From Promethearchaeota archaeon (GTDB taxonomy: Archaea > Asgardarchaeota > Heimdallarchaeia > Hodarchaeales > Hodarchaeaceae), in assembly GCA_048939265.1 (NCBI GenBank), contig JBHLPQ010000001.1:6726-70725 (forward strand): a stretch of 64,000 nt of DNA. Reading direction: 5' to 3'. Each line of letters begins with the position of its first letter. The stretch's first letter is position 1. The notes under the pieces are model-generated. The model was not told the DNA's origin and did no database searches. It worked only from the letters and a program-made list of their open reading frames with translations. The position numbers were made by a program, and so were the translations under genes. Of this stretch, positions 4,988 through 52,955 are shown piece after piece.

Positions 4988-7900
4988 ATGAAAATTATAA
5001 CAGAGGATCCTCTTTTTGGTGGAATAAAAGTGAAAAGAATACAAAACAATAAAATCTTCTTCCTCTTCATAGTATTATTATTTACCTATTCAGCTCAGGG
5101 ATTCATTCAGTTTTTTCAAACTGAGTCTATAGATTCCCACTCTTCTTCATTAGGTAATAGACAAGTCCCACCCCTTCAGGAAAATGGTCTTTCATCCTCC
5201 TCTTCTCCACGTACTGGGATCATTCCACCTTCAGGCTCTCGTCACTCTCCTCGGGCTGGTGTAAACGAAATAGTTGATGGAGGGTTTGTTTATTTTCCTG
5301 GTGACACGATTCACATCAGAAATCGGTTTAATATTCCTAACTATGATTTTGCAATATTATCTCAAAGGATTGATATTTATCTATTCAATAGTAGTGATAC
5401 TCCCGAAAATGTCTCAACCCACTTCGTCAAGTCAGATTATACTAATGGTTCGAGACCCGCCGAAGAACCCTCAATTTCGGATGATCCTCAACTTGGCTGG
5501 CTTGATACCACATTTCAAATTCCCACTTGGACAGAATTAAATGCTATGGGTATCGATGCTGATGATAATGTAACAATTTACCAATTCTATCCCTCATACA
5601 ATGTAACTTCTGAAATCTCTGGATGCCCACCTTTTAATCGAACTGATTCTTTTATCATTAGTGGCTATGCCATGTTTTCTGTTGATGCTCCTGGTTTGGT
5701 GAATCCTATTAGTGGGGACAATAGCTTTCGGCAGGGAGAAAATGCCACCGCTTCATTAACCGCAATTTCAGGGGTAGATCCTGTACCAGACGTAGCAGTT
5801 GACTGTTCCCTCTATTTCAGTAATGATATAGAAATTCTAAATGGAACCAATGGGTTCAACTATTATCTTCAAGATTCGTTGGGAAATCCATCAACTACAA
5901 CAGATTCGAATGGTAAGATCTACTTATTCGTGAATACAACCTATCCTACCACGTCTGAGAATGATTATTATTGTAATGTTACAGCCAATTTCGATGGAAC
6001 TGGTTTTTACACTAGTAATTACGTTCCTGGCAATCCAAGCACTAATACAGAGACAGCCTCGGTTGATTTCACGATTGATAATCAGGAAGACATCGTATCT
6101 ATTGATTTTATATCTGCCATTGGCGATACATCTGGTTGGCCAAAAGGGGAGAATGATTCCTGGCCCCTGAATCCCCCACTTGAAAACATCACGATTGTGA
6201 CATTTAGAGTTCAAGCTACTACCTCGTATAATGGGACCTCAACTCCCTATATCCTTGAGGGCATTCCTGTTAACGTAACTTTAGATTTCGGGGGTGGTTG
6301 GCCAGCAGGGGTAACCCTCAGTGCTGTCCCAGGATTTTCGTATAATGGTAGCTGGGCTTTCACTAATAGTGCTGGACTTGTCCAATTTAATATCACTGCG
6401 ATATATCCTACTTATTATGGTCAAAAAACCCCAACTATTATTGCGAGGGCAAATTTGCAGAATAATTCAGCTTTATCCTACCCCTATTCTTCTGTTTTAT
6501 TGCCCCATCGTTTTCTGACTTCTGCGACTGGTGTTAATGCTACCACTTCCAAAGTGATCAGTATTGACCATGATTTTTGGATTGGAGAGATTTCCTCTTC
6601 GCTAAACGACACTAGTATCCGACCAGGAGAAGGAGCGAGACTAGCGACGCAAATCTATGCTTATGGGGATTATTACGATGACCAATACCATCAGTCAATC
6701 TCTCCAATTGGCACCCTTCCTGTGAAAATTGAATTAATCCAACAGATTCCTGGCGTTAGTATTATTAATACGAATCCTGTTGCTCCGAATCCGGGCTACC
6801 ACTATACGGATATAAATGGCTGGATATATGTGGATATTAGCACAACCTTTGGGGTCACTCCTGAATACTATCTCAACCTGGGAATTAAAATAACGGTCGA
6901 TTTTGAAAATGATTCAAATCCCCGCTTGATTGGTCCGTATCATGCTGGTTATGATACTTTTGCAGAATTCGACAAAACATGGAATACAATCCAGAGAAAT
7001 CTTGACATTGATGCTAATTATATACTTTGTAACATCTACACAAGAGATCTTATTGAGAACGGAATATCCTACCCTTCTTCTAGCACAGAAGCAAAAATCC
7101 TCCGTCCAGGTGACGTCTTGGATGTTTATTTTGAGGTCGAAGAGGTCATAGAGGCTATTTCTTTAGGGAGTATTCCTGTAAACGTCTCACTGAGTGTCTC
7201 TGATCCAGAGGTCTCAATAGGATTCATTTATTCTGATGGTGAAGCAAGACCGAACTACCATAAAACAAGAAGTGATGGATATATAGCGATTCGTGTCACC
7301 ACTACCAGTAGTCTAAAACCTCAAGTAATTCAACTCAAAGCAATAGCCGATTTTGCCAATGACTCTTTGCCCTGGCATGTAGGCCCGAAAAATTACACTC
7401 AATTCATTGGGAATAGCTCATATTCTGAGATCATTTTTGACATTACTATTAATCCTCAATATTTTACGGGCAGTATTTATAGGCCTAATCCATCTATAAA
7501 TCCGAATGCCTCGTTAGTCGTTCAAGGCGAAACCTTTGAAATCAGATTTGATTTAAGGCTCACTTTTCACAATACTGGAGAAATTCTTCCCCTGGCCAAT
7601 GCTCTCATTGACGGAATCTCCATTACTCTCCTAGTAAACGGTACAACGAACTACGGCCTTTATAAGATGCGAGTGCTAAATGAGACTCTTTTAGAAGCCT
7701 CCAGTCAAAACACTGTTGATAGCACAGTAATTTTTTATGTCCAAACAAATGTTTCAGGGTCCACTGTAGAAGATACATACAATATCTCTGCTAGCGCTAA
7801 TTTTGGAGCTGCTAAGGGATGGATTTATAATATTACTCATCCGTCGGTACCTACAGGGGAATTGTCAGGAGACTGGGTCAATGGTTCCTCCGCAGCTGAT

Positions 7901-10919: not shown

Positions 10920-12668
10920 ATGGTAGATCGAACAACCTCTGCACTGATCATCCTAGCCATTTTCATTAGTTATCCTTTTGCAGCAGCATTCTTACTGGGT
11001 ATAGTAGCTGTAGATAGAAACACAACTAATTTTTCCATTTATAATGAAGGTTGGAATGGAGCTAGTGCATTCAAGAAAATGTTCGAAGAATATGGCGACG
11101 AAGGGGAAGGGGGTCAAATCTCTACTATTGTTGGCAGTAATAATGTTCTAAATCGTTTAAATGCTTCTGAATCCAACAGTTCTCTCATCATATTAGGCCC
11201 AGCAGTCCATTATGATTTTTCCGAAGCATTAGCTATTGTTTTTTACGCTATTAAGGGAGGACGAGTTTTAATCGCAGATGACTTTGGCACAGCTAATGAT
11301 ATCCTTGGAGTTCTTTCTATCTTTCTAGGAATGATGGCACAGATAGATTTAGGTGGTTTGGGGTACAGTGATGCGACAGGAGGGACAAATATCTTTGGAT
11401 TTGAAACAACTACAGACAATACTACAACTACAACCACCACTGAGTCATGTGATCTCGGTGCAAATTTCCCAATTGCTGGAGTTGCCATTAATGGGAGCCT
11501 ACTAGTTGACCAAGGTAGCTACAAACCTCCTACCCCTCTCACGCCGATATTTCATTCTCCTGTTTCAGTTACTCAAGGTACCAGCTATCGAATGCCAGCC
11601 CCTTGGGTCACTGAATTTACAGAGGGGCTCAGTGGTAATGGTGTTGTGGGAAATTTTGCTTCAATCATAACAATGAAGGTTCGTTATCCAGTTAACGCGA
11701 CAGAGGACCCCATTACAGGAGAATGCCAAGTCTCTTATGAAACTAAATGGGTGCCAATGGGAGAGTTTCCAGCTTCTCTATCCAACGCGTTTTCTGATGT
11801 AAAAAGCCAAGTCTCTAATTTAAATATCCCTGATTTTTCCTTCAGTTTTCAAATCGCTGTCCTCTATAGCAGTAGTGAGGCATGGTTAGAATCTGATATT
11901 GAATTAGCAAAGCAAGATGTTAATAAAATAGGCCCAAATGTGACTGAATGGGGAAACCCAACCATTGGATTTCCAGTTTTTGTTTATTTTCCTTTTCCTC
12001 TAGGAGGAGACTTAACCATCTGTTCAGATCCCTCCATTTTCATCAATGAGTATATTGATGATGAAAGAGAAGAGTATGATTCAACTTACGATAATAGAGC
12101 TTTTGCTCAAAATGTAGTCGATAAAATGATGACAAGTCGGCCAGGTCAAACAATCATATTTGATGAAGGACACCTTGCAAATCACCCTTTATCACCAACC
12201 CTCCCACTTAGTTTATATCTGAAATTTCTCGATATGATTTCAATGTTTCCCCTCTTTGCGTGGGCTTTACCAATTGGAGCAATTATATTATCAAGACGAT
12301 TTATGCCGAAAAGAACACAAGCTAAACCTCTTCTGTTAACCCGTGTTGAACGATATTATGGGCGTAGCTTTTTCGCAGTTAAAATGCGTTGGTTCCTTGA
12401 ATATCAACAATATTCGCGCGGTTTAGAACTGATATATCGCCGTTTAAGGCGTAATTTAATTCGCCGCTACAATCCAGAGGTTGACCTTACCCCTGAAGTG
12501 GCCGCTACTTACTTAGCAAACGAATTTCCCGATCGTTTCACTCATAGAGGCATTACTGATGGGTTAATTGCAATCGAACGGATTATTGATAGTCGAGCTG
12601 CGATTTCTGAACAAGAATTTTTAGATCACTATCTATTCCTAAAAAACATTGGAGTAGAGATAACTTAA
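10920..12668 (+). CDS. DUF4350-like (GldG/GATase1-like) extracytoplasmic domain protein with a Thr-rich linker, a TM helix and a C-terminal DUF4129-like segment
   Basis: N-terminal signal/TM, a SLIILGPAVHYDFSEALAIVFYAIKGGRVLIADDFG block resembling DUF4350, a TTTTTTTT run, the TM MFPLFAWALPIGAIILS, and a C-terminal LTPEVAATYL...ISEQEF motif. Confidence 0.5.
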   Translation: MVDRTTSALIILAIFISYPFAAAFLLGIVAVDRNTTNFSIYNEGWNGASAFKKMFEEYGDEGEGGQISTIVGSNNVLNRLNASESNSSLIILGPAVHYDFSEALAIVFYAIKGGRVLIADDFGTANDILGVLSIFLGMMAQIDLGGLGYSDATGGTNIFGFETTTDNTTTTTTTESCDLGANFPIAGVAINGSLLVDQGSYKPPTPLTPIFHSPVSVTQGTSYRMPAPWVTEFTEGLSGNGVVGNFASIITMKVRYPVNATEDPITGECQVSYETKWVPMGEFPASLSNAFSDVKSQVSNLNIPDFSFSFQIAVLYSSSEAWLESDIELAKQDVNKIGPNVTEWGNPTIGFPVFVYFPFPLGGDLTICSDPSIFINEYIDDEREEYDSTYDNRAFAQNVVDKMMTSRPGQTIIFDEGHLANHPLSPTLPLSLYLKFLDMISMFPLFAWALPIGAIILSRRFMPKRTQAKPLLLTRVERYYGRSFFAVKMRWFLEYQQYSRGLELIYRRLRRNLIRRYNPEVDLTPEVAATYLANEFPDRFTHRGITDGLIAIERIIDSRAAISEQEFLDHYLFLKNIGVEIT

Positions 12669-39629: not shown

Positions 39630-39730
39630 GGCCGACGTAGGATAGATACGAGCAGCTGACTGCTTGTAGTACAATGGTAGTCTCGGAGGTTGTGGCCCTT
39701 CATGTCCGGGTTCGATTCCCGGTGTCGGCC
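39630..39730 (+). tRNA. tRNA-His(GUG) with an encoded G-1 and a ~27-nt insertion (non-canonical intron) in the D-arm region. No encoded CCA.
   Basis: Manual fold: G-1 then acceptor GCCGACG/UGUCGGC, discriminator C73 (the G-1:C73 pair is diagnostic of His), anticodon stem GGAGG/CCUUC with loop UUGUGGC (anticodon GUG), T-arm CCGGG-UUCGAUU-CCCGG. The 5' half between the acceptor and anticodon stems is about 27 nt too long and contains a GCAGC/GCUGC hairpin, consistent with a BHB intron. Confidence 0.6.
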
Positions 39731-41115: not shown

Positions 41116-41883
41116 ATGACGAATGAAAAAGAGGCCTCTCTCATGTCAGCAGAGCAAAACAATGTACTGTTTCAGAAATTCAATCTTTCCTTAAATCTAA
41201 AATTACCTCTAGCATTACTCATTGAAGCTCTTACACACCCGTCCTACAAATCAGTAGATCCTAATATTCGTGATAATCAACGACTTGAAACGCTTGGAGA
41301 TTCCGTTATTGATCTTCTCGTTCTTAATTGGTTCTATCACAAGGATGTAATGACTGAAGGAATGTTAACGAAGAAACGGGCCGAAATTGTCCAAAACACC
41401 ACATTAGCGAAAATAGGGAAAGACTTACAATTAGACTCAATCCTACGCTGTGCACCAGCTTATATAATTCAAGAAAAAGATATTGCTGATACTATTGAAG
41501 CCATCTTCGGAGCAGTATTCGTAGCTAATGGATTGTCTTTATGTCAGTCGCTGTTATTACAACTGTTTGAGGATCTTTTAGATAATGCTTTGAACTCCGA
41601 TGAGAATGAAAGCTTTATTCTAGGCCAAAATGAAATTAATCCAAAAAATCAGCTCCAGGAATTTTTTCAGCAGCGGTATTTACCTGAACCTATATATCGA
41701 TTACTTAAAAAGGAGGGGAGTGATCATGAACCAAGATATTGGTATTTATGTCAAGGAACATACCAAGAGGAGATTGTGAAAGGGGAAGGATTTGGAAAAA
41801 ATAAAAAAGAAGCGCAGAAAGACGCTGCCCAAAACTTGCTCAAAAAACTCATTCACTTGGAAAATCAGGTTAATTGTGATTAA
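41116..41883 (+). CDS. rnc: Ribonuclease III (bacterial-type, catalytic domain plus C-terminal dsRBD)
   Basis: RNase III signature HPSY....NQRLETLGDSVIDLLV, a second acidic cluster DTIEAIFGAVF, and a C-terminal dsRBD (NPKNQLQEFFQQRYLPEPIYRL...GEGFGKNKKEAQKDAAQNLLKKL). Confidence 0.85.
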   Translation: MTNEKEASLMSAEQNNVLFQKFNLSLNLKLPLALLIEALTHPSYKSVDPNIRDNQRLETLGDSVIDLLVLNWFYHKDVMTEGMLTKKRAEIVQNTTLAKIGKDLQLDSILRCAPAYIIQEKDIADTIEAIFGAVFVANGLSLCQSLLLQLFEDLLDNALNSDENESFILGQNEINPKNQLQEFFQQRYLPEPIYRLLKKEGSDHEPRYWYLCQGTYQEEIVKGEGFGKNKKEAQKDAAQNLLKKLIHLENQVNCD

Positions 41884-41902: not shown

Positions 41903-42298
41903 CTATTTCAAGGGGACAAATTGTGATCCTCTTGTGGCTCCAATACCAGGAGCGGAGTGCTTAACCTGTTTACAGGTGGGCGCAAACTCCCCTAAATAAT
42001 GTCCAAGCATTTCTGGGAGAAGATTGACACGAAGAAACTCCTTACCGTTGTAAACCTGAACAACAGCACCAATAAGTTCGGGAAGAATGATGAAATCGCG
42101 GCAGTGCGTTCGAATAGGCCGTTTTGATTCTTTGCTAGCCAGAATGCGTTCCATTAGTTTAATGTGCTGAGAACTCATTCCACGGGTCAGAGATCGACGC
42201 TGGCGAGCAGGAAGGAGGGAAATAAATTCATCCATGGATTTTTGACGGAGTTCATCGAGTGTAAATCCACGATAACGAAAACCACGACGTGATGACAA
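41903..42298 (-). CDS. rps19: 30S ribosomal protein S19 (uS19 / S15e-type archaeal form)
   Basis: FRYRGFTLDELRQKSMDEFISLLPARQRRSL....THCRDFIILPELIGAVVQVYNGKEF...PEMLGHYLGEFAPT.K.VKHSAPGIGATR matches archaeal/eukaryotic uS19. Confidence 0.85.
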   Translation of the reverse strand: MSSRRGFRYRGFTLDELRQKSMDEFISLLPARQRRSLTRGMSSQHIKLMERILASKESKRPIRTHCRDFIILPELIGAVVQVYNGKEFLRVNLLPEMLGHYLGEFAPTCKQVKHSAPGIGATRGSQFVPLK

Positions 42299-42659: not shown

Positions 42660-43136
42660 ATGGTTGAATTTGAAGTGCCGAATTACAAGATCTCCGTCTT
42701 TGGGTTAGATGCAGACCGCACTGCGATTGCAACAGGACGGAATATGCGAATTTCGCCAAAGCATGCTCGTGAAATTTGTCATGAATTAAAAGGGAAATAC
42801 TTAGAAACCGCTCAAGAATATCTTGAACAAGTAATCGCAGGAGAAAAAAGTGTTCCTTTCAAACGATATCGGAAAAAAATACCTCACCGACGCGATTTAC
42901 AGAAATGGCCAGCAGGGCGTTACCCCCAAAAGGCAGCAAGGGAAATTCTCCGAGTCTTGGAAAATGTGGAACAGAATTCCTCATTCAAAGGATTAGAGGT
43001 TAGCCGGTTACGAATAACCCATATTGCGGCTCAAAGAGGACGAAAAATCCGAGGAATTATGCCACGAGCCCATGGACGGTCATCACCAAGCAATCAAACA
43101 TTAACTCATGTCGAGGTAGTGGTTACGGAGGAGTGA
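42660..43136 (+). CDS. rpl22: 50S ribosomal protein L22 (uL22)
   Basis: Archaeal uL22 pattern (ISPKHAREICHELKGKYLETAQEYLEQV....GLEVSRLRITHIAAQRG), in position before uS3. Confidence 0.85.
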   Translation: MVEFEVPNYKISVFGLDADRTAIATGRNMRISPKHAREICHELKGKYLETAQEYLEQVIAGEKSVPFKRYRKKIPHRRDLQKWPAGRYPQKAAREILRVLENVEQNSSFKGLEVSRLRITHIAAQRGRKIRGIMPRAHGRSSPSNQTLTHVEVVVTEE

Positions 43137-43139
43137 GGG
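43127..43139 (+). promoter_or_regulatory. Shine-Dalgarno-like GGAGGAGTGAGGG immediately upstream of the rps3 start
   Basis: A purine-rich GGAGG stretch ending about 2-7 nt before the ATG of the internal operon gene. Confidence 0.3.
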
Positions 43140-43140
43140 A

Positions 43141-43932
43141 ATGGCTGCAAGAAAAGAGTTATTAAATAGGAATTTGCAATACGTTCAAGTAAGTGAATAC
43201 CTAAATGATGAATTACAGTTAGCAGGGCAAGGGAAGGTTGAGATTCATAAAACACCAATGGGCCATCGAGTGGTAATCCACGCTGTACGATTAGGAATGG
43301 TGATTGGGAGACGTGGACGAAATATTAGAAAAATCACTGAAATTCTAGAGCATAAATTCGGATTAGAAACTCCTCAACTAGAAATCAAAGATCTTGAAAA
43401 TCCTAGACTTAATTCCCGAGTAATGGCTGGTAGATTAATTTCACAAATTCAAAAGGGGTTCCACTTTCGTAGAGCAGGGTATGCTTTAGTTCGACGAATC
43501 ATGTCCGCAGACGCACGAGGTTGCGAAATTACAATAAAAGGCAAATTAACCTCCCAACGAGCACGTGCGGAAGTTTTCAGAGAAGGGTTCGTGGCAAAAT
43601 GTGGAGAGCCTTCAAAAAGATACGTCGAAGATACAGTAATGGAAGTAACACTCAAACAGGGAGTTATCGGGGTACATGTAAAGATTATGCAACCCGATGC
43701 AGTACTCCCTGATGATGCCGTACTCATACCAAATGTTTTTGGTGAACCAAAAGATGAAGTGATCATCGAGGAAGAAGAAGAATTTGTCGAAGAAGAACTA
43801 AAACCAGAAACTGAGGAAGAGCCCATACCTGAAACGAAAGCAGAAGAAGATATAATTGAAGCGGATCCTGAAGATGCAATTGAAAAAAGTGAAGAATTGC
43901 TGAAAGAGGAAGATTTTGAAGAAGAAAGGTGA
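43141..43932 (+). CDS. rps3: 30S ribosomal protein S3 (uS3) with an acidic C-terminal extension
   Basis: KH domain (RLGMVIGRRGRNIRKITEILEHKFG), the uS3 C-terminal domain, then a Glu-rich tail. Confidence 0.9.
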   Translation: MAARKELLNRNLQYVQVSEYLNDELQLAGQGKVEIHKTPMGHRVVIHAVRLGMVIGRRGRNIRKITEILEHKFGLETPQLEIKDLENPRLNSRVMAGRLISQIQKGFHFRRAGYALVRRIMSADARGCEITIKGKLTSQRARAEVFREGFVAKCGEPSKRYVEDTVMEVTLKQGVIGVHVKIMQPDAVLPDDAVLIPNVFGEPKDEVIIEEEEEFVEEELKPETEEEPIPETKAEEDIIEADPEDAIEKSEELLKEEDFEEER

Positions 43933-44150
43933 TAGAAACGGCAATATTAAGGAAAGCTGAGATTCGGAAATTGTCTCTTCCTGAACGGGAGAAGAAGTTA
44001 AAAGAATTGAAAACCGAATTATTGACATTGAGAGGCAAAGCTAAAACAGGATCAATTGAATCCGCCGGTCGTGTCCGTGAACTAAGACGAACAGTGGCAC
44101 GAATCCTTACCATTAATAAGGAAGAGCAAAATGTCCCGAAATCACCGTGA
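43929..44150 (+). CDS. rpl29: 50S ribosomal protein L29 (uL29), GTG start
   Basis: LRKAEIRKLSLPEREKKLKELKTELLTLRGKAKTG..ESAGRVRELRRTVARILTI matches the uL29 helical hairpin. The start overlaps the rps3 stop. Confidence 0.8.
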   Translation: MIETAILRKAEIRKLSLPEREKKLKELKTELLTLRGKAKTGSIESAGRVRELRRTVARILTINKEEQNVPKSP

Positions 44151-44418
44151 AGTATCACTAGAGAGAAATCTATTAAGAATTAGGTTAATAAATCGTCAAT
44201 GCGAAATTGAATATTCAGGCAATGTATTTTCAGGACAAATTAGGAACGAAACAAAAAATACCTGGGAAATAATGACCACATCAGGGTTGAAAACAATCCC
44301 AAAGGATCAAGCTAAATTACGAATCACAATTAATAACCAATCATACAAAATAAATGGTAACCAAATGAAAGGACGATATGAAGATCGCATTAAGCGTATG
44401 AGGAAACGTAAATGGTGA
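44131..44418 (+). CDS. rnp1: Ribonuclease P protein component 1 (Rpp29/Pop4 homolog)
   Basis: Conserved operon position between uL29 and uS17 in archaea. The Sm-like beta region is followed by the C-terminal GRYEDRIKRMRKRK basic tail typical of Rpp29. Confidence 0.65.
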   Translation: MSRNHREVSLERNLLRIRLINRQCEIEYSGNVFSGQIRNETKNTWEIMTTSGLKTIPKDQAKLRITINNQSYKINGNQMKGRYEDRIKRMRKRKW

Positions 44419-44756
44419 AGAAAAAGTATTCACGACAAATTGGAATCGCCCCGACACCTAAGAGGACGTGTGATGACCAGAACTGTCCCTTCCATGGAAC
44501 ATTATCTGTTCGTGGACGAATTATTGAAACAAAAGTGATTTCAGACAGAATGGACAAAACAGTGACAGTTGAAAGACCATATCTGGAATTAATAAGGAAA
44601 TACAAACGTTATGGGCGATCAACAATACGAATGCATGCTCATAATCCCCCTTGCATCGACGCGAAGGTGGGAGACCATATACGAATTGGAGAATGTCGTC
44701 CACTATCAAAAACCGTTTCTTTCGTTGTAATTGAAAATCTTGGGAAAGGAGAATGA
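44412..44756 (+). CDS. rps17: 30S ribosomal protein S17 (uS17)
   Basis: GIAPTPKRTCDDQNCPFHGTLSVRGRIIETKVISDRMDKTVTV.....KYKRYGRSTIRMHAHNPPCIDAKVGDHIRIGECRPLSKTVSFVVIE matches the uS17 OB-fold. Confidence 0.85.
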   Translation: MVKKKYSRQIGIAPTPKRTCDDQNCPFHGTLSVRGRIIETKVISDRMDKTVTVERPYLELIRKYKRYGRSTIRMHAHNPPCIDAKVGDHIRIGECRPLSKTVSFVVIENLGKGE

Positions 44757-44760
44757 TAAA

Positions 44761-45177
44761 GTGAAAAAAAGAAGATCATTAAGGCTTGTAACAAGGCGAA
44801 TAACACGCGCACTACCCACTGGAGCTATTGTAAGAGTGGCAGATAACTCTGGGGCAAGAATGATTCAGGTAATTAGTGTGAAAGGGCATAACACCCGATT
44901 AAGAAGACAACCAGCTGCTAGGGTCGGGGATATGATCGTATGTTCAGTCAAAAAAGGAACCCCAAAACTAAGAAGGCAGATAGTCCACGCCGTTGTAATT
45001 AGACAGAAAAAACCCTATAAACGATCAGATGGGAGTTGGGTATATTTTGAAGATAACGCAGTAGTAGTCACAAACGAACAAGGAGAACCACGTGGAAGCG
45101 AAATCCGAGGAGCCGTATCAAAAGAAGCTGCTGATGCGTGGCCACGAATTGCGAGTACTGCAAGAGTGATTTCCTGA
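44761..45177 (+). CDS. rpl14: 50S ribosomal protein L14 (uL14). The GTG start is chosen just after the rps17 stop; the alternative in-table ATG at 44731 would overlap rps17.
   Basis: TRALPTGAIVRVADNSGARMIQVISVKG...VGDMIVCSVKKGTPKLRRQIVHAVVIRQKK......FEDNAVVV matches the uL14 consensus. Confidence 0.8.
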   Translation: MKKRRSLRLVTRRITRALPTGAIVRVADNSGARMIQVISVKGHNTRLRRQPAARVGDMIVCSVKKGTPKLRRQIVHAVVIRQKKPYKRSDGSWVYFEDNAVVVTNEQGEPRGSEIRGAVSKEAADAWPRIASTARVIS

Positions 45178-45180
45178 AAG

Positions 45181-45606
45181 GTGAAAAAAATGGGTACAAA
45201 GACTCGAGATCCATCGAAACAAAGACGCAGGCTATACTCCGCAGACTCATTTCATCGATCAAAACTGATGTCAGCACGACTCTCCAAAGACCTACGAGAG
45301 AAGTACAAGGTGAGAAAAATGCCCGTACGAACAGGCGATACGGTCTATATTACCACGGGCGACTTCACTGGGACAGAAGGGAAAGTACTCTCTATCGATA
45401 CGAAAAAACGACGATTAGCAGTTGATGGAATTGCCCGCGAGAAAGCAGATAAATCAAAAGTAATGTACAAAATTGACCCCTCAAAAGTGGTTATTCGGCG
45501 GTTTGGAAAAGTAGATAGATCACGAAAGAAGATTCTTGAGCGACGGGCAAAAATGGAACTGGAAATTGACGAAGAGGACATCAGCGTTGTGGAAGAAGAG
45601 GAATAA
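45181..45606 (+). CDS. rpl24: 50S ribosomal protein L24 (uL24, KOW domain) with an acidic tail
   Basis: KOW motif (KMPVRTGDTVYITTGDFTGTEGKVLSIDTKKRRLAVDGI) and archaeal operon position. Confidence 0.85.
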   Translation: MKKMGTKTRDPSKQRRRLYSADSFHRSKLMSARLSKDLREKYKVRKMPVRTGDTVYITTGDFTGTEGKVLSIDTKKRRLAVDGIAREKADKSKVMYKIDPSKVVIRRFGKVDRSRKKILERRAKMELEIDEEDISVVEEEE

Positions 45607-45620
45607 TGGAGTAGAGAACA

Positions 45621-46403
45621 ATGGGTAAGAAAGGAAGTCCCCGACATAGAAAACGATTAAGTGCTCCAATCGCATATCCTATCCCAAGAAAGCATGGAAT
45701 CTTTACAATCAGACCTTACCCGACACGAAGTACAAGGGAATCTTCGATCCCGTTAGGAATTGTAATTAGAGAAATATTAGGATACGCCAAAACCCTTTCC
45801 GAAGTTAAAAAAATACTCAGCAAGAAAATAATCAAAATTGATGGAAAAGTGCAAACTAGCTATAAATCTAGCTTAGGACCAATGGATATATTGGAAATTA
45901 CCAAAACGGAGGAATATTTTCGGCTAACCCCCTACCGTGGCAAACGAAGATTCAAATTACACCCAATTACCAAAGATAACGCTCATCTAAAAATGCAACG
46001 AATCCAAAGAAAACAGACAGTCAAGAATAACTTAATTCAACTTACATTTCACGATGGGAGGAACTACTTAATGGATCCTAAAGAGAAGTACAAATTTCCT
46101 ATACAAGAACTTGCAGCCAAAGACAGTGTGATGTTCAACCTGGAAGAAAAAATAATCGAAGATCATTTCCCCTTTACTGAAGGTAACACCGCATTAATTA
46201 TGGGAGGACATAATGTAGGAATCGTTGGCAAAATCCAAGAGATTGAAGCTCAAAGCGGTCGGAGAACAAAAACAGTTACTTTAGAAACAGAAGAAGGAGA
46301 AATAAAAACAACAGATCAACATCTATTTGTCATCGGCCGAGAAGAACCAGTCATTGAAATACCACAAGTAATCATCACCGAGGATACTCAAGATGAGCTT
46401 TAG
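45621..46403 (+). CDS. rps4e: 30S ribosomal protein S4e (eS4)
   Basis: GSPRHRKRLSAP..YPIPRK.G.F..RP.PTRSTRESSIPLGIVIRE matches the eS4 N-terminus. Length 260 aa and position after uL24. Confidence 0.85.
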   Translation: MGKKGSPRHRKRLSAPIAYPIPRKHGIFTIRPYPTRSTRESSIPLGIVIREILGYAKTLSEVKKILSKKIIKIDGKVQTSYKSSLGPMDILEITKTEEYFRLTPYRGKRRFKLHPITKDNAHLKMQRIQRKQTVKNNLIQLTFHDGRNYLMDPKEKYKFPIQELAAKDSVMFNLEEKIIEDHFPFTEGNTALIMGGHNVGIVGKIQEIEAQSGRRTKTVTLETEEGEIKTTDQHLFVIGREEPVIEIPQVIITEDTQDEL

Positions 46404-46995
46404 AAAAAGAACTCTCCCAACAGAAGAAGAAGAAAGGAAACCAGTTCCACTCACAGATGCCGAAAAAGCCTATGTAAAAGAATGGAAAGCACATCCAATG
46501 CGAAAACCACGCATTTTAAAAGTGTGCGTGAACTTTGCAGTAGGATCATCCGGACCAAAACTGGAACAAGCTAGAGAACTGTGTGAAATCTTAACAAATC
46601 AAGCACCAGCAGATGGGAGAGCAAAAGAGTCTGTTAGAGGATTTGGTATTAGAAAACATGAACCCATCGCAGTATTCACAACGCTAAGAGGAGAACTTGC
46701 TGAAGAATTCCTGAAGAAAGCGTTTTGGGCTGTAGAAGATCAAGTTTCACAGAGAAATTTTGATAGACATGGAAACCTATCATTGGGAATAGACGACCAC
46801 CTAAAATTACCCAATATTAAATACGATCCTAAAATCGGAGTTCACGGATTTGATACAACAGTAGTTTTGGAACGCCCTGGTTATCGAACAAATCGACGGA
46901 GATCACGGAGAATGAAAATCCCAGCTAGCCATAGAATTACTAAAGAGGAAGGTATTGCTTTTTTCAAGCATGAGTTCAATCTTGGAGTTGTCTAA
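46393..46995 (+). CDS. rpl5: 50S ribosomal protein L5 (uL5)
   Basis: [38 protein letters not shown].......[20 protein letters not shown]....FLKKAFWAV matches uL5. Confidence 0.85.
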
Positions 46996-46996
46996 T

Positions 46997-47155
46997 ATGC
47001 ATAAGATGTCAGAGCCAAAGAAAAAGTTTGGGAAGGGAACACGTACCTGTCGGAGATGTGGGACACATAGAGCAGTTATACGAAAATATGGATTGTACAT
47101 CTGCAGACGATGTATCCGAGAAATTGCAGACGACTTAGGTTTTAGAAAATATTGA
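46997..47155 (+). CDS. rps14: 30S ribosomal protein S14 type Z (uS14, zinc-binding). Start moved to the internal ATG after the rpl5 stop.
   Basis: [45 protein letters not shown] is a canonical Zn-ribbon uS14. The in-table start at 46955 would overlap rpl5 by 40 nt. Confidence 0.8.
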
Positions 47156-48021
47156 CAGCTAGACGAACTCCATTCCAACAAATTCAACAAGTAATCCGAG
47201 ACCAAGAAATTCTACCAGAAAAAAAGCTTGCACTATTACCAAAACGCTGGAAGCGAGTAGGGGAAGTAGGGATATTAAATCTGAACCCAGAACTCTTACC
47301 CTGGAAGAGAGAAATAGGGGAAAAATATCTAGAATTCTTACCAGAACTAAAGACAATTGCACATAAAGTTGGAATAACAACTGCCACGATAAGGCAACCT
47401 GATAATGAGGTTCTAGCAGGAGACACCAATACAGTCACGCTACACAAGGAGTTAGGCTGTAAATTCTGGATAGACGCGCTGAAACTGACATTTTCCAATG
47501 GAAATCATGCAGAACGACAAAGGATGATAAGAATCTGCCAGAAACGGGAACAAATTATTGATATGTTTGCCTGTGTTGGAAACTTGTCATTACCAATAGC
47601 TGTTCACAATCCAGCTGTTAAAATAAAAGGAATTGAAATCAATCCAGAGGCATTTGAGTTCTTGAAAAAGAATATTCAGGTGAATCAGGTTAAGGAACAA
47701 TACCAAGCAGTATTTGGGGATAACCGGAAAGTCACACCAAAGGATTGGGCAGATCGAGTAATTATGGGATATTTCACCAGTGATAATGCTCAACTTGCTG
47801 CTGCCCTTACGAGTTTAAACCAAGAACATGGAGGAATCATTCATGTTCATGGATTATCTAGCTCACGTAATCCAACTGATTGGCATCCACAAATACAAGC
47901 AGTAATTGAAGAATCATTTCCTCATCTTATAATTAAAACTAATTATAAAAAAATTATCAAGACAGTCGCACCAGGCATTAACCACTATGTTAATGATATA
48001 GAAATACTATCCAATAAATAA
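47152..48021 (+). CDS. tRNA methyltransferase of the Trm5/Taw2 (Met-10+ like) class, TTG start
   Basis: SAM-dependent MTase motif I in a Met-10+ context ([16 protein letters not shown]...[21 protein letters not shown]), length 289 aa. The start overlaps the rps14 stop. Confidence 0.7.
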
Positions 48022-48072
48022 GATGCAATCAGGGAAGGAAATCTGTCCACAGGGGCAATAAAAAAGATAAGC

Positions 48073-48966
48073 TTATTGTTTTTGCATGAAAGAGAGAAAT
48101 TCAGTAACTTGAGAATGAATATCACGAGCCTCCTCCTTAGAAAGAAGATAATTATCATGAATAACAGCATTACGGAGAGAGTTGAGGCGATTGAAAAACC
48201 GTTGGTACTGAAATAGCCCATAATGGGCCACTTTAGCATCTAAACCTGTTTTAAAGTTCCCATCGAGGCTCAACACCTCTCGCACTGTTGAATGAGCATA
48301 ATGGATGAAAGCATTAAGATAAATCAGATTTTCTCCTTTTGTCCCTTCTTCAAAGCATTCTAATGCAAGGTTCCAGACATTCTCTGCTTCAGGAGGTATT
48401 TGAAAAACAATCTTTGATTTAACTACAGGAGTAGAAATAACTGAAGGCCCATTGGTTTCAGGCTCATTAATCTGGGGAGATTCATCAGAAACATCAAGAA
48501 GTTCATCTGTTTTTGGAATTCCAGGAGGAAAGGATAGACGAATTTCTAACTGTTGTAGAATAGAATTTAACTCTGCTGTAATAGAAGGGTGGGATTCTAA
48601 CCTCGCTTTGGCCTCAATAAGAAAGAAAGATGCTTTGAGGAATTCATCTTTAGATTTAAAAATATCTGCAATCCGTAACCAAGTACTTACATCCTCTGGA
48701 CACCATTTAGTAGCCTCAAAAAATAGCTTTACTGCCTCAAGATCTTTGCCTTCTTCCTTCAGGATCATAGCTCGTAAAATCCAGAAATCTATCAACAGGG
48801 ATACGTTATTATTGCTTAATTCCCTAAGGGAGGCAATATGAACAGAATCAACATCCCCAGAATCATCAGCTAAGATTAATTCAACAATATCGATAATGGC
48901 TTCTCCATTAGGATGAGTTTCTAAACTCCTAACGAAATTAGAAACTAATTGGCTAGTTCCTTCCAT
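48073..48966 (-). CDS. TPR-like N-terminal domain fused to a C-terminal HEPN-like domain (putative RNase or RNA-binding protein)
   Basis: The N-terminal helical repeats are followed by a ~110-aa C-terminal helical domain ending in LNSLRNAVIHDNYLL, an Rx4HxxY arrangement like HEPN/HepT catalytic motifs. Confidence 0.45.
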   Translation of the reverse strand: MEGTSQLVSNFVRSLETHPNGEAIIDIVELILADDSGDVDSVHIASLRELSNNNVSLLIDFWILRAMILKEEGKDLEAVKLFFEATKWCPEDVSTWLRIADIFKSKDEFLKASFFLIEAKARLESHPSITAELNSILQQLEIRLSFPPGIPKTDELLDVSDESPQINEPETNGPSVISTPVVKSKIVFQIPPEAENVWNLALECFEEGTKGENLIYLNAFIHYAHSTVREVLSLDGNFKTGLDAKVAHYGLFQYQRFFNRLNSLRNAVIHDNYLLSKEEARDIHSQVTEFLSFMQKQ

Positions 48967-49121
48967 TGTTATTAACCGAAAAGTCTTAACATGTCAATTA
49001 TGAAAAAAAGATCTTTTACATTATTCTTACCTGTAGTTCTTTTTTAAAGTCCAAAAAAAAAGAAAATAATGATCGTAATCATTTCAGTAAGATACTGGAA
49101 AAAGGAGCCCTTTTGAAATTA

Positions 49122-50144
49122 TTAATCTCGAACAAATTCTTCCATAATTTTATCGGGTATCTCTATGGCAAATTTACAAACCATATCGCCCCATAATGCA
49201 GTCTGTAGTGGTTCAACATTTATAGCTTGATCAAAAATCTCATCCCAATATAATTTGAAATAACCTCCACTACAATAACAAAAATTTGGAGAAATCTCTT
49301 GTTCCGTTCCATCTTTGATGGCTCCCCGTACCCAAGGACAATAACACCAATAGTATCGTTTCATGTGATCTGAGTCAGCAGTCAAGAATCTTTTAATTTG
49401 ATAAGGAACTTTTGAAATAATAATCTTATTATTGTCCCGGACACCTGCACCCATGGTAGGGATTGATTTTATATACTCAAAGACTTCATCGTCAACTAAT
49501 TGAGCAAACATAGCTGTTCCATCATTTTTATGCCGCTCAACCTCGCTCAGGAAATCTTGACGTTTCAGCGCAAGAAATTGATCTAAATCCTTTAATTCTT
49601 GGAATTTCTCTTTATCGGTACCAACTGGTTGGCCACCATGTAAACAGGGCCGAAGCAACGCAATTGTCTTCTCCTTCCCTAGTTTATCTTCTAATCTTCT
49701 CATAACTAATTTTGTCACTTGAGGCTTTTTCTCAGGATGAGCTCCTAGAGGAGGAATTTCTATCCCCTCAAAAATTTCCTCTCGTACTGCTTCGCCATGC
49801 CAGTCAGCTATGCGATCATAGATAGTGTTCATGGCGGAATAGGATTCAGCGATGTCAAGTAATTCCTCCATGTGATGATGTGCTTCGATGAAAGGGAAAT
49901 ATCTCCAGAGTCCAATAACAAGGTGTCTTGCTGTTTCTTTATCGTTTAAAGCCAGCTGGTCAGCATACCTGATCAATTTTCCATAAGAAAAGGAATTTAT
50001 TGTCTCATTCTCTTCCTTAAGAAACTCAATAAAACCACGGATAGCTCCAAGGAGGTTGGGTATCTCAGTTTCTGGAACTTTGTTTTCTAAAAGAAAGGAT
50101 CTGTACTCTTCCAGCTGATATTCGTTTTTCTCCATATTGCTCAC
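49122..50144 (-). CDS. Hypothetical protein with a His cluster (EAHHHMEE) and a Cys-rich C-terminal module (CLHGG...CYCPW...CYCSGG...CKFA), possibly metal-binding
   Basis: 340-aa ORF with conserved-looking Cys/His spacing. No family assignment from memory. Confidence 0.4.
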   Translation of the reverse strand: MSNMEKNEYQLEEYRSFLLENKVPETEIPNLLGAIRGFIEFLKEENETINSFSYGKLIRYADQLALNDKETARHLVIGLWRYFPFIEAHHHMEELLDIAESYSAMNTIYDRIADWHGEAVREEIFEGIEIPPLGAHPEKKPQVTKLVMRRLEDKLGKEKTIALLRPCLHGGQPVGTDKEKFQELKDLDQFLALKRQDFLSEVERHKNDGTAMFAQLVDDEVFEYIKSIPTMGAGVRDNNKIIISKVPYQIKRFLTADSDHMKRYYWCYCPWVRGAIKDGTEQEISPNFCYCSGGYFKLYWDEIFDQAINVEPLQTALWGDMVCKFAIEIPDKIMEEFVRD

Positions 50145-50261: not shown

Positions 50262-52955
50262 TTATTTCCTCTTGAATCTATCTCTGAATAGTACAAGAAT
50301 ACCAAGAGATAATGAGAGTGTAAGGAAGCTAGAAAAAGAGGTAATGCGCGGGGTACCAGGTTCTCCAGATGTCGTAGTAGTAGTGGTATCTGAGAGCATT
50401 GGAAGAGTAGCACTTACTTCATCAGAATACTCACTCTCACCAATGGGGTTAACAGCAGTGACAACATAATAATAGGTGGTTTCACGAACGATTGTAGTAT
50501 CCTCGAAAAATGTATTGGAAGTGTCTTCTAAGAAAGAATAACTGCCACTAGAGGTACCACGATAGATGTTATAATGCGAAATCGCACGTCCACCAGTATC
50601 AGTAGGAGGAGACCAGCTCAAATGAATATTATCCTCACTAGGAGTGGCAAGAAGACCTCGAGGAGGTGTAGGAACTGTCGCAGGAACAATTGGAGTTGCC
50701 CACGCTTCATTAGAGAAGAAACTTTCCCCAGCGCTGTTAACAGCAGTAACAACATAATAATATGTAGTCCCAGCAACAACGGTAGAATCATCGAGAGTAG
50801 TTCCAGTAGTAGAATTTAAAAAAGAATGGCTCCCACTGGAAGTGCCACGATAGATGTTGTAATGTGTAATCACACTTCCACCGTCATAACTGGGAGGAGC
50901 CCAATTTAACGTTACAGAATGCTCCCCTGCGGTAGCTTGAAGGTTTAATGGAGCACTTGGGAGTTCTAAGACTTCATACTTTCTTAATTCAGATCGATAA
51001 TTATTACCCAGGGAATCATTCCCAAAAACCTGAACTGTATGAACTCCTACAGGAGGCATAAGAATGGTAGTATTACCCAGAGTAGTGATATTTGCCCCAC
51101 CATCGAGAGAATACCCTGTCCAGAAGGGGGGAGTTGGAGTCGTATAATTTAGGAGTAAACCCTCATTCAGATTATCTCCAACATAATAATTCGGATCCCA
51201 ACTGAAACCAAAGGCATCCCATTGAGTGGCTCCAAAATAGGTAGGGATATCACTAGCTAAATACAGTTCATCTAGTGTATCTAAATCATTTTGAAATTCA
51301 ACATTCTGGACACGACTAATTTCAGTCCCATTTTCATTGGCGACAGTCCAGGTAAATTGACCATTCGCCCCGAGCTCACAATCGAACTGGATGGAATGAT
51401 GGTACCATTCATAACTGACAAGATCCGATATTGAATGCCAAGTAGTCCCATCAGAATACTCAAGGTTACTTAAAGTAGCACTAACAACATTAATTCGGAT
51501 TTCAACAGCAATTGTATCATCAAAAGCACGTAACTGGAGATAATGGGTTCCTGTGTAAGGCGCATGGATATTCTCTACAAGGGTGTAGAATTGAATGGTG
51601 CCAGTATTGGGAGGAGTATTAAAATAATGAACGCCATAGGTGTACGTCGCAGCTTGAGCATCACCAATGTGAAGAACCTTCTTATGACCGTAAATAGGGC
51701 CGTCATGAACCCCAATTCCAACATACTCCCCAGCTGTTGAATACTCATCAAGAAATTCAAGTTCTAATCCTGTGGCAGTATGACGTTCATTCTCAAAGCC
51801 AAAGGTCGCAGGATAATACCCACTCATTGGGGAGTTATACACTGTAGCCTCAGGGGAATGTAATCGGATCGGATCATTTATTATGGAAGATAGAGGTTCA
51901 GATTCAGCACATTTTCGAACAAAAACCCAATCACAACGGATTTCAGGAGAACCAGTGCCATCATGCCATGTACGGGCGCGGACTGCATGACCCATGCCCC
52001 AAGAGTCAGTTGATTGAAGAGCCTCACCATACCAAGTACCAGGGCCAGCATACATATCCATGGTAAGAATTCGAACCTGTAACGGAAGAGTGGGTATGGT
52101 AGAACTGTTTGTATGAGCAATAACAGCAGTTCCATTATCAAATTCAGCCAGAGAAGCATGTATCCGTCGAATCTCATGGGTAAACCAGGTTTCATATGAG
52201 AGGGCATTATCGGTAACTTCCCATCCTACTTCATAAGTAAAATTTCTAGTGAAAAAAGTATCACTTGGACCATAGGTACGACCTGTAGAGACTCCATTGG
52301 CCCCTTTGGCTCCATAAGTTTGGCCATGGTTAACGTAAAAGTCACTAAAACCAATATGGACACTAGACGCATGATCACTAGGAGTATCCGTCTGTAAAGA
52401 AACAACACCCCCAGCGACATCGGAAGTACTATAGGTATCACTTTCAGTTGTCCACTTACTCGAATCAATAACTGAACCAAGAAAATCATCGAAAAAGAGG
52501 AATGTGGCTTCCCCATCGCTTCCAGAACTAGCAGCAGTATTACCAGAAAACATATTGAAGGAGGAAGTACCTGCATCAGGAATCTTTACCCAAATGATTG
52601 AGGTGCCAATTGAATCCCAGAGTTCTATCCAATAAGATAACGGATTATTCTTCAAATCAAAAAATCGAATATCCGCCCCACTTATCTGTGCACGGGAATA
52701 ATCGAAGTTAGAAGGAGTTAAGACAATTTTAACATTGTAATCGGGAGTAGGGGTGGACTGATCTAAAGCAATCAGACTGTGATAAGTCCAACCTGCAGGA
52801 ATAATAGAAGCCCTTAGTACACTACTGTTTTCAGGAATCATCTCTTCAGAGAGAGAATTCTCGGTTAAAAGACTCCGAGAAGAAAAAGGAAGATCTTCTA
52901 ATGAAGTTAAAAAAATACAAAAAATAATGGCAATTAAGATTAGGCTCTTTCTCAT
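50262..52955 (-). CDS. Secreted/anchored surface protein: signal peptide, DUF2341-like domain, a central beta-rich (LamG/jelly-roll-like) region, two tandem fibronectin type III domains, a poly-Thr linker, and a C-terminal TM helix with a basic tail
   Basis: N-terminal MRKSLILIAIIFCIFLTSL. Residues 70-150 match the DUF2341 pattern (YNVKIVLTPSNFDYSRAQISGADIRFFD..NNPLSYWIELWD....IWVKIP......MFSGN). Two FN3 repeats both contain ..WxPP..GG..I.HYNIYRGTSSGS..F......TYYYVVTAVN..GES. The C-terminus is TTTTTTSGEPGTPRITSFSSFLTLSLSLGILVLFRDRFKRK. Confidence 0.7.
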   Translation of the reverse strand: MRKSLILIAIIFCIFLTSLEDLPFSSRSLLTENSLSEEMIPENSSVLRASIIPAGWTYHSLIALDQSTPTPDYNVKIVLTPSNFDYSRAQISGADIRFFDLKNNPLSYWIELWDSIGTSIIWVKIPDAGTSSFNMFSGNTAASSGSDGEATFLFFDDFLGSVIDSSKWTTESDTYSTSDVAGGVVSLQTDTPSDHASSVHIGFSDFYVNHGQTYGAKGANGVSTGRTYGPSDTFFTRNFTYEVGWEVTDNALSYETWFTHEIRRIHASLAEFDNGTAVIAHTNSSTIPTLPLQVRILTMDMYAGPGTWYGEALQSTDSWGMGHAVRARTWHDGTGSPEIRCDWVFVRKCAESEPLSSIINDPIRLHSPEATVYNSPMSGYYPATFGFENERHTATGLELEFLDEYSTAGEYVGIGVHDGPIYGHKKVLHIGDAQAATYTYGVHYFNTPPNTGTIQFYTLVENIHAPYTGTHYLQLRAFDDTIAVEIRINVVSATLSNLEYSDGTTWHSISDLVSYEWYHHSIQFDCELGANGQFTWTVANENGTEISRVQNVEFQNDLDTLDELYLASDIPTYFGATQWDAFGFSWDPNYYVGDNLNEGLLLNYTTPTPPFWTGYSLDGGANITTLGNTTILMPPVGVHTVQVFGNDSLGNNYRSELRKYEVLELPSAPLNLQATAGEHSVTLNWAPPSYDGGSVITHYNIYRGTSSGSHSFLNSTTGTTLDDSTVVAGTTYYYVVTAVNSAGESFFSNEAWATPIVPATVPTPPRGLLATPSEDNIHLSWSPPTDTGGRAISHYNIYRGTSSGSYSFLEDTSNTFFEDTTIVRETTYYYVVTAVNPIGESEYSDEVSATLPMLSDTTTTTTSGEPGTPRITSFSSFLTLSLSLGILVLFRDRFKRK
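50406..50957 (-). repeat. Tandem in-gene duplication encoding two FN3 domains (about 88 aa each) of the 897-aa surface protein
   Basis: The protein-level repeat ...HYNIYRGTSSGS.SFL..T.......T.V...TYYYVVTAVN..GES occurs twice back to back. The underlying DNA shows corresponding similarity (complements of GTTAACAGC.GTGACAAC near 50451..50462 and 50736..50747). Confidence 0.6.

Follow-up and report, generated by a model that had tools for sequence, protein, structure and literature searches.

What is a protein that carries a HEPN-type ribonuclease motif, joined to a TPR-like domain and unaccompanied by an adjacent antitoxin gene, doing next to a block of ribosomal protein genes in an Asgard archaeon? 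The question is raised by a gene on the minus strand of a 64,000-nucleotide stretch of the genome of a Promethearchaeota archaeon (assembly GCA_048939265.1, contig JBHLPQ010000001.1, positions 6,726 to 70,725; hereinafter, the window), at positions 48,073 to 48,966 of the window. HEPN nucleases are mostly known as toxins or immune effectors, such as HepT, the Abi proteins, Csm6/Csx1 and Cas13; to our knowledge, the few that have taken on housekeeping RNA processing (Las1, Ire1/RNase L and Swt1) are eukaryotic. Our results support a protein of two domains, a TPR-like module and, connected to it by a tether, a HEPN-fold domain whose ribonuclease motif is intact. The protein belongs to a previously undescribed HEPN family that has no model in Pfam, NCBIfam or PADLOC and whose members are annotated only as 'TPR repeat protein' or 'hypothetical'. 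By analogy with characterized relatives, we favor, at a probability of roughly 0.55, the interpretation that the members of this family are regulated metal-independent endoribonucleases that are more likely to serve a housekeeping or translation-related function than to act as toxins.

The assignment to the HEPN superfamily draws on the fold of the C-terminal domain and on the position of the motif within it. According to the defining analysis of the superfamily, a HEPN domain is a bundle of four helices that carries an insert between the second and the third, the Rx4-6H motif occupies a canonical position at the end of helix 3, the residue directly after the arginine is a polar N, D or H, and in many, although not all, HEPN families helix 2 contributes an acidic residue within E-x3-[KR] (Anantharaman et al. 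2013, PMC3710099). The C-terminal 106 residues of the window protein are modeled as exactly such a bundle with an insert between helices 2 and 3. The AlphaFold2 model of the domain alone has a predicted local distance difference test score (pLDDT) of 92.4 and a predicted template modeling score (pTM) of 0.87; in domain numbering, its helices span residues 8-26 (H1), 31-47 (H2), 68-86 (H3) and 93-112 (H4), with an insert helix at 54-65, in agreement with the initial description of the last 110 or so residues as helical. In the model of the full-length protein, the helix formed by residues 252-270 ends at H270 and is followed by a loop at 271-276, which places Rx4H at the canonical position, and the residue after the arginine is an asparagine. 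The nearest structural neighbors of this domain are the minimal HEPN proteins and toxins associated with MNT nucleotidyltransferases (AF0298/UPF0332, TTHA0636, TT1696 and the HepT toxins SO_3166 and Aphanizomenon HEPN), followed by SsR10, another HEPN toxin, the Roquin HEPN domain, YutE, AbiA, ST0689 and HI0074, and then by Csm6, LsoA, sacsin, Las1 and Csx1. Thus, the model supports a canonical minimal HEPN fold in which the predicted Rx4H (R265, N266 and H270) is intact.

Profile comparisons point in the same direction. Of all Pfam families, HEPN_RiboL-PSP alone recurs on the C-terminal domain, being matched by 11 of 22 members in one set and by 8 of 18 in another (best E-value 4.4e-4), and single members also match HEPN_Swt1 (Swt1-like, best E-value 2.9e-4), HEPN_Apea and HEPN, all below threshold. 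When a profile of 18 diverse C-terminal domains (A3) was compared with the sequences in the PDB, the best match, at an E-value of 0.094, was HepS (9oij), in an alignment that superimposes LNrlRNkviH on MNNIRNKYAH, that is, on the Rx4H of HepS itself (NIRNKYAH); the analogous search with the C-terminal alignment A2 returned nothing meaningful. Judging by spacing, RNKYAH of HepS appears to correspond to the mutationally validated R100 and H105, with the numbering of the chain shifted by about two residues. A HEPN-superfamily signal is therefore present in substance, in the form of the subthreshold HEPN_RiboL-PSP matches and the alignment with HepS, and the HEPN-like interpretation advanced in the sequence-only reading is supported.

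The motif itself is found exactly as had been claimed, with R265, H270 and Y273 in the C-terminal translation LNSLRNAVIHDNYLL. About 0.89 matches to Rx4-6H are expected by chance in a protein of the same composition, and a second match is indeed present in the N-terminal domain (R13..H18), so that the pattern alone does not exceed chance; Rx4H stands above chance because of its conservation combined with the fold. In an alignment of 39 sequences, R265 and H270 never vary, and at least 90% of the members retain N266 and Y273. In a broader set of 63 distinct family sequences, comprising homologues, divergent cluster representatives and species-level genomic loci, the arginine is retained in 61 of the 62 sequences aligned at this position, the asparagine in 59 of 62 and the histidine in 60 of 62, whereas the tyrosine is present in 58 of 63. 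The pattern RN...H..Y persists in the most divergent species-level homologues (39-43% identity), and Rx4H is nearly invariant down to about 35% identity within the domain; a loss of the two catalytic-type residues among orthologues, which would have spoken against the assignment, is thus not the pattern observed. A patch in helix 2 shows similar conservation in the same set (H222, T227 and R229 in 61, H225 in 60 and E230 in 54 of the 63 sequences) and would be located close to Rx4H in space.

The remainder of the protein accounts for the other half of the initial proposal, a TPR-like/HEPN-like fusion, which is supported by the TPR repeats, the modeled four-helix bundle and the conservation of the arginine and histidine. 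The protein is 100% identical to a database entry named 'tetratricopeptide repeat protein [Promethearchaeota archaeon]', and its start methionine is common to nearly all homologues in the 39-sequence alignment. The full-length AlphaFold2 model (pLDDT 82, pTM 0.54) contains eight helices within residues 4-145, disorder at 153-185 and a helical bundle at 192-296. These three parts differ in their mean identity between homologues and the window protein, with 64% for the N-terminal domain, 27% for the linker and 71% for the C-terminal domain, which is the best conserved. The N-terminal region consists of tandem helix-turn-helix repeats that match TPR models, and a profile search of the PDB with the full-length alignment returned TPR matches only. 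Between the first two helices of this region lies the loop motif ETHPNG, in which all 39 sequences agree at E16, H18 and P19 and at least 90% of them at N20 and G21; [LI]-E-x-H-P is retained in the most divergent members as well, apart from one (P0062) with T in place of E. This loop might have a partner-binding or a structural role. The linker ranges from 29 to 51 residues among the homologues, and only P147 and G149, at its start, are conserved.

The distribution of the family is limited to Asgard archaea of the Hodarchaeales type. Among 5.8 billion proteins searched, 52 homologues were identified, of which 2 are fragments and 50 are near full length (280-303 amino acids, 47-100% identical), with the same architecture throughout the latter. 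All named matches come from metagenome-assembled Asgard archaea labeled Hodarchaeota/Hodarchaeales, Heimdallarchaeota or 'Promethearchaeota', with single Thor and Hermod labels. The C-terminal profile, run exhaustively by hmmsearch against 1.84 billion representatives, recovered 13 clusters, none with an E-value weaker than 1e-10; all belong to the TPR-HEPN family, those among the divergent ones that bear names are from Hodarchaeales, and no bridge to other HEPN families was found. Because this search recovers the TPR-HEPN family alone, the family is sharply delimited and has no hidden Markov model link to other HEPN families. Both complete 'Heimdallarchaeota' chromosomes that were recovered carry one intact copy each. 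The divergence of the HEPN protein parallels that of its neighbors: over the same comparisons, identity is 73/51/41% for the HEPN protein, 82/65/58% for Taw2 and 82/67/58% for S4e. Neither the HEPN protein nor the product of the gene upstream of it matches PADLOC-DB at E-values up to 1, and no relatives were found in phage records, plasmid records or IMG/VR, so that an origin from mobile elements was rejected. Taken together, these observations indicate a gene that is apparently single-copy and vertically inherited, evolves under purifying selection in both of its domains and does not occur on mobile elements.

Traces of additional copies were encountered in two genomes. In metagenome-assembled genome TM1M.79 (JBHLRO010000003.1, locus L015), a second copy of the family at 5001..5825, away from the Taw2 block, contains an in-frame stop (GVD*VWELAV) and has no tblastn match to the first 23 residues while retaining RNRVAHEEY; it is probably a decaying paralogue. 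On CP070760.1 (locus L001), an open reading frame of 35 amino acids (MVQDNSVLSKEEVRALYAQILLFLDALQ...) at 12172..12279 on the plus strand, 3.3 kb downstream of the intact gene, is 47% identical to the 38 C-terminal residues of the family and has the appearance of a gene remnant.

In addition to its phyletic range, the family has a recurrent genomic setting. In the window, the gene converges with the last gene of a ribosomal protein block, L22-S3-L29-Rpp29-S17-L14-L24-S4e-L5-S14. The location right after this block had been noted correctly from the sequence; the name Trm5 that had been given to its last gene, however, fits less well than Taw2/TYW2, given that the NCBIfam E-value is 1.5e-52 for Taw2 as opposed to 3.4e-35 for Trm5b (neither reaching its equivalog cutoff), and PH0793 of P. 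horikoshii is the top match in the PDB (4e-48). Taw2/TYW2 is the tRNA(Phe) 4-demethylwyosine aminocarboxypropyltransferase. The tail-to-tail pair of the HEPN gene and Taw2 is found in 12 of 16 genomes, including those encoding the most divergent members (about 35-40% domain identity), with Taw2-S14-L5-S4e as the gene order that converges with the HEPN gene; in nine species, the distance between the two stop codons ranges from −17 to +53 bp. The 5' flank of the HEPN gene, in turn, changes from genome to genome and, in the loci with called genes, holds a histidine kinase, a diacylglycerol kinase, a helix-turn-helix regulator or uncharacterized genes. The gene immediately upstream in the window, on the same strand, had been described as Cys/His-rich and of unknown nature; its C-terminal third is indeed Cys-rich, and it has only a weak match to DUF6144. 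The possibility that it is a conserved partner was rejected because it neighbors the HEPN gene only in the closest relative (L006, 78% identity) and is absent from the other loci. No MNT gene adjoins the HEPN gene in the window, as had been noted, or is present among the called genes of seven homologous loci, no other gene recurs upstream, and no defense genes were detected among the called neighbors of the homologous loci. No hairpin resembling an intrinsic terminator was found in the spacer between the convergent genes, and neither a terminator and promoter scan of 47900..49200 nor Rfam and tRNA scans of the window revealed anything tied to the HEPN locus.

By analogy with characterized HEPN enzymes, a simple model of the most likely mode of action, that of a metal-independent endoribonuclease, can be formulated. 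Under this model, two protomers would dimerize with their Rx4H motifs facing each other and form a composite active site, in which the histidine would activate the 2'-OH of the substrate, and the arginine and asparagine would stabilize the transition state; cleavage would yield 2',3'-cyclic phosphate and 5'-OH ends. The TPR-like domain, held on the flexible linker, would most likely bind a protein partner or a peptide that recruits or gates the nuclease, and the substrate could be a translation-related RNA, either tRNA or rRNA, processed by what would be a housekeeping or stress-regulated RNase. A vertically maintained cellular function, as opposed to a toxin-antitoxin or mobile defense function, is proposed because of the distribution, synteny and evolutionary rate of the family, and a translation-related role is suggested by the proximity of Taw2 and the ribosomal protein genes. 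In a bolder version of this proposal, to which we assign a low probability, the protein would be an essential, lineage-defining RNA-processing endonuclease of Hodarchaeales that docks through its TPR domain on the translation apparatus or on a Taw2/TYW2-linked tRNA-maturation complex and cleaves a specific tRNA or pre-rRNA.

Several observations, however, weigh against the proposal of a housekeeping HEPN ribonuclease. With respect to the fold, a Foldseek search of the PDB yields no significant match (E-values of at least 0.3), with AF0298 ranked second at 0.4 and designed bundles, hemerythrin and CheA P1 at similar E-values; technically, this undiscriminating result is the main weak point in the case for the fold. 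Pfam, NCBIfam and PADLOC scans, whether of the single sequence or of each member, brought no curated HEPN model above threshold: the window protein scores 15.2 bits against PF18735 (HEPN_RiboL-PSP), its sole Pfam match on the C-terminal domain, compared to a gathering cutoff of 28.4, and NCBIfam and PADLOC return no match. As regards the active site, one full-length member (P0060) has leucine in place of H270, a sequence of 109 amino acids (P0056) is devoid of both the arginine and the histidine, and the canonical E-x3-[KR] of helix 2 is replaced by H225-x3-R229 followed by E230, so that the active site may be incomplete. The closest structural relatives of the domain are the MNT-associated HEPN toxins, and partner-less solo HEPN defense proteins exist, HepS being one. 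Finally, the pairing with Taw2 is lost in 4 of the 16 genomes: in one of these, three genes are inserted between the two, and in the other three, the pair is not together within the sequence examined. Because convergent genes are not co-transcribed, the conserved adjacency may be mere inherited synteny, guarded by overlapping 3' ends, rather than a functional link.

The existence of solo HEPN defense proteins makes it necessary to consider that the protein is a stand-alone, trigger-activated defense or abortive-infection nuclease of the HepS kind, in which the TPR-like domain would sense a viral or stress protein and free an auto-inhibited RNase, resulting in a shutdown of translation. Such a mechanism requires no antitoxin, it agrees with the partner-less HepS being the best match among PDB sequences and with the HEPN toxins of MNT-HEPN systems being the nearest structural neighbors, and fusions with TPR are known from HEPN families involved in biological conflicts, such as LA2681 and the STAND-TPR architectures (PMC3710099). 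Nevertheless, we consider it a serious but less likely alternative, given the lack of PADLOC matches and of phage, plasmid or IMG/VR relatives, the order-wide and apparently vertical distribution with a uniform architecture, the stable chromosomal place beside the ribosomal protein block, an evolutionary rate near that of the housekeeping neighbors and the absence of defense genes among the called neighbors. Alternatively, the protein could be a HepT-type toxin whose Y273 is AMPylated by an MNT adenylyltransferase encoded elsewhere, and the conserved tyrosine after the histidine would fit this scheme. The HepT signature, however, is RX4HXY, with the tyrosine two residues after the histidine (PMC7641770), whereas here it follows three residues after (RX4HXXY), so that the resemblance to HepT-type motifs mentioned in the sequence-only reading is not exact. 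The window and the seven loci with called genes contain no adjacent nucleotidyltransferase, the 190-residue TPR and linker region has no counterpart in HepT, and there is no Pfam HepT/DUF86 match even at E-values up to 10. In view of the missing MNT and the unfitting tyrosine spacing, the toxin-antitoxin interpretation was rejected, and its probability is very small.

Two further possibilities concern the domain rather than its biological context. If the HEPN domain is non-catalytic, it could instead bind RNA, nucleotides or proteins, like the HEPN domains of Roquin and sacsin and the C-terminal domains of nucleotidyltransferases, making the protein an adaptor or scaffold that retains the arginine and histidine for binding. 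The combination of TPR with a helical domain is a typical scaffold architecture, and the unusual form of the helix-2 acidic residue would be in line with a lack of catalysis; yet the arginine, asparagine and histidine are each at least 95% conserved, compared to the loss of Rx4-6H in the substrate-binding HEPN domains fused to nucleotidyltransferases and in part of the MtlR family (PMC3710099), and binding alone hardly accounts for solvent-exposed residues of the catalytic type at the canonical position. We therefore view a purely binding role as rather improbable. The domain might even be no HEPN domain at all but a generic four-helix bundle with a fortuitous Rx4H, a view to which the expectation of about 0.9 motifs per protein, the similar Foldseek E-values of designed bundles, hemerythrin, CheA P1 and AF0298, and the failure of every curated HEPN model to reach its threshold all lend some force. 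Such a coincidence is hardly credible when the motif occupies the exact canonical position with a polar residue after the arginine and remains nearly invariant across 63 sequences that diverge to about 35% domain identity, and when the sole recurrent Pfam signal comes from a HEPN family.

Comparison with characterized systems helps to place the family. Like the minimal MNT-associated HEPN proteins, it has four bundled helices, an insert between helices 2 and 3, and an Rx4H that ends helix 3, with a polar residue after the arginine and a conserved tyrosine nearby, but differs from them by the lack of an adjacent MNT, the presence of the N-terminal TPR-like domain and linker, and the absence of a detectable sequence-profile match; moreover, the family is chromosomal, order-specific and syntenic, whereas those proteins are scattered and mobile. 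HepS (PDB 9OIJ) is a solo HEPN anticodon nuclease of the Salmonella prophage Gifsy-1 whose activity requires R100 and H105 and which is held inactive by its oligomeric state until opened by a phage protein. The absence of a genetically linked inhibitor is common to HepS and the family described here, but the match between them is weak (E-value 0.094) and covers only about 36 residues, and HepS is a single-domain, prophage-encoded defense protein (212 amino acids in the crystallized chain) as opposed to a TPR-containing protein that is not on mobile elements and is confined to Hodarchaeales. In the case of HEPN_RiboL-PSP, a family with AbiF and AbiD as distant relatives, the matched region is the C-terminal third of the model, which bears the motif; the proteins of that family are bacterial, are fused to endoRNase L-PSP or encoded in a ParB operon (PMC3710099) and have no TPR domain, and no L-PSP or ParB gene was found in any neighborhood examined here.

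The combination of a TPR array with a HEPN domain bearing a conserved Rx4-6H has been described in the LA2681, C6orf70/ERMARD (DUF4209) and DZIP3/TTC3 families (PMC3710099), which are bacterial or eukaryotic and have the same general architecture as the proteins analyzed here. The presence of the TPR-HEPN fusion in the LA2681, C6orf70 and DZIP3 families shows that this solution recurs. For sets of 39, 22 or 18 members, HEPN_LA2681, DUF4209 and HEPN_DZIP3 are not among the Pfam matches listed at E-values up to 10, although the HMMER filters may drop very weak matches, and a name-based search of the literature for fusions of TPR with HEPN found none. Since no model of a known TPR-HEPN family matches, the fusion in Hodarchaeales appears, as far as sequence comparison can tell, to be independent. 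Las1 offers a functional rather than a sequence parallel, being a HEPN nuclease with a housekeeping role in ribosome formation, where it acts on the internal transcribed spacer 2 (ITS2) of pre-rRNA, as the present family is chromosomal and adjacent to ribosomal protein genes; in contrast, there is no sequence signal and no Grc3-like kinase partner, and the HEPN domain of Las1 is N-terminal. The prokaryotic ancestry of Las1 is unknown (PMC3710099). Accordingly, a specific relationship to Las1, for which no specific similarity was found, or to C6orf70, LA2681 or DZIP3, is not supported.

Table 1. Features of the HEPN gene and its immediate surroundings in the window (strand given as +, − or, for the spacer, a point).
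Feature	Position in window	Strand	Basis or remark
Complete open reading frame, TPR-like/linker/HEPN protein	48073..48966	−	open reading frame list; ATG start, 297 amino acids plus stop codon
N-terminal TPR-like domain, residues 1-145, eight helices	48532..48966	−	
N-terminal loop motif E16-T-H18-P19-N20-G21, between helices 1 and 2	48904..48921	−	translation ETHPNG
Variable linker, residues 146-191, predicted disordered	48394..48531	−	pLDDT <50 at residues 153-185
C-terminal HEPN-fold domain, residues 192-297	48076..48393	−	
HEPN helix-2 patch H222-Y-A-H225-S-T-V-R229-E230	48277..48303	−	translation HYAHSTVRE
Putative catalytic motif R265-N266-A-V-I-H270-D-N-Y273, from the end of HEPN helix 3 into the start of the H3-H4 loop	48148..48174	−	translation RNAVIHDNY
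Spacer separating the HEPN gene from the Taw2-like gene at their convergent 3' ends	48022..48072	.	51 bp
Taw2/TYW2-like (Trm5-superfamily) tRNA(Phe) wyosine enzyme, convergent neighbor, last gene of the ribosomal protein block	47152..48021	+	Pfam TYW2_N_2 and TRM5-TYW2_MTfase
Cys-rich upstream gene, 340 amino acids	49122..50144	−	weak DUF6144 match (E-value 1.1e-5, below cutoff); also ATC_hydrolase

The surroundings of the gene include several additional features. The ribosomal protein cluster is rearranged, with S19 (41903..42298, minus strand) on the opposite strand from the L22...S14 block (42660..48021, plus strand), which ends after S14 with the Taw2/TYW2-like gene and does not extend to S8-L6 and beyond; five other Hodarchaeales loci (L002, L004 and L017-L019) share this layout. 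Beside the ribosomal protein genes, 41116..41883 (plus strand) encodes an RNase III of the bacterial or eukaryotic type, with Pfam matches to Ribonuclease_3 (E-value 9e-23) and dsRBD (8e-14) and an NCBIfam RNaseIII match (7.8e-45) whose 153 bits fall just under the cutoff of 166 bits. Classical RNase III with a dsRBD is uncommon in archaea. On the other side of the HEPN gene, 50262..52955 (minus strand) encodes a predicted surface protein of 897 amino acids with DUF2341 and two fibronectin type III domains; its translation has a hydrophobic stretch near each end, one signal-like and one membrane-anchor-like, and only its C-terminal part is conserved in the related loci. At 39667..39722 (plus strand), Rfam reports a marginal tRNA match (29.1 bits against a gathering threshold of 29.0, model positions 8-63) where ARAGORN calls none; a fragment of a tRNA, a tRNA that is split or contains an intron, and a false positive are all conceivable.

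With the family described here, the HEPN superfamily gains a member for which no model exists. The claim is a modest one in that the fold and the motif are of a well-known kind, the association with Taw2 is suggestive, and the function is proposed by analogy. Should the protein instead be a solo toxin activated by a trigger, it would represent an immune effector specific to Asgard archaea and equipped with a TPR sensor. Being vertically inherited, partner-less and located beside the ribosomal protein and Taw2 block, the family is a candidate for the recruitment of a HEPN domain to a housekeeping function in archaea, in Hodarchaeales, a lineage that is placed closest to eukaryotes in some phylogenies. 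If the protein were indeed an essential RNA-processing endonuclease, it would represent an archaeal 'domestication' of HEPN into core RNA processing, as in the eukaryotic Las1, Ire1 and C6orf70, and the family might then be related to the untraceable ancestor of one such eukaryotic family.

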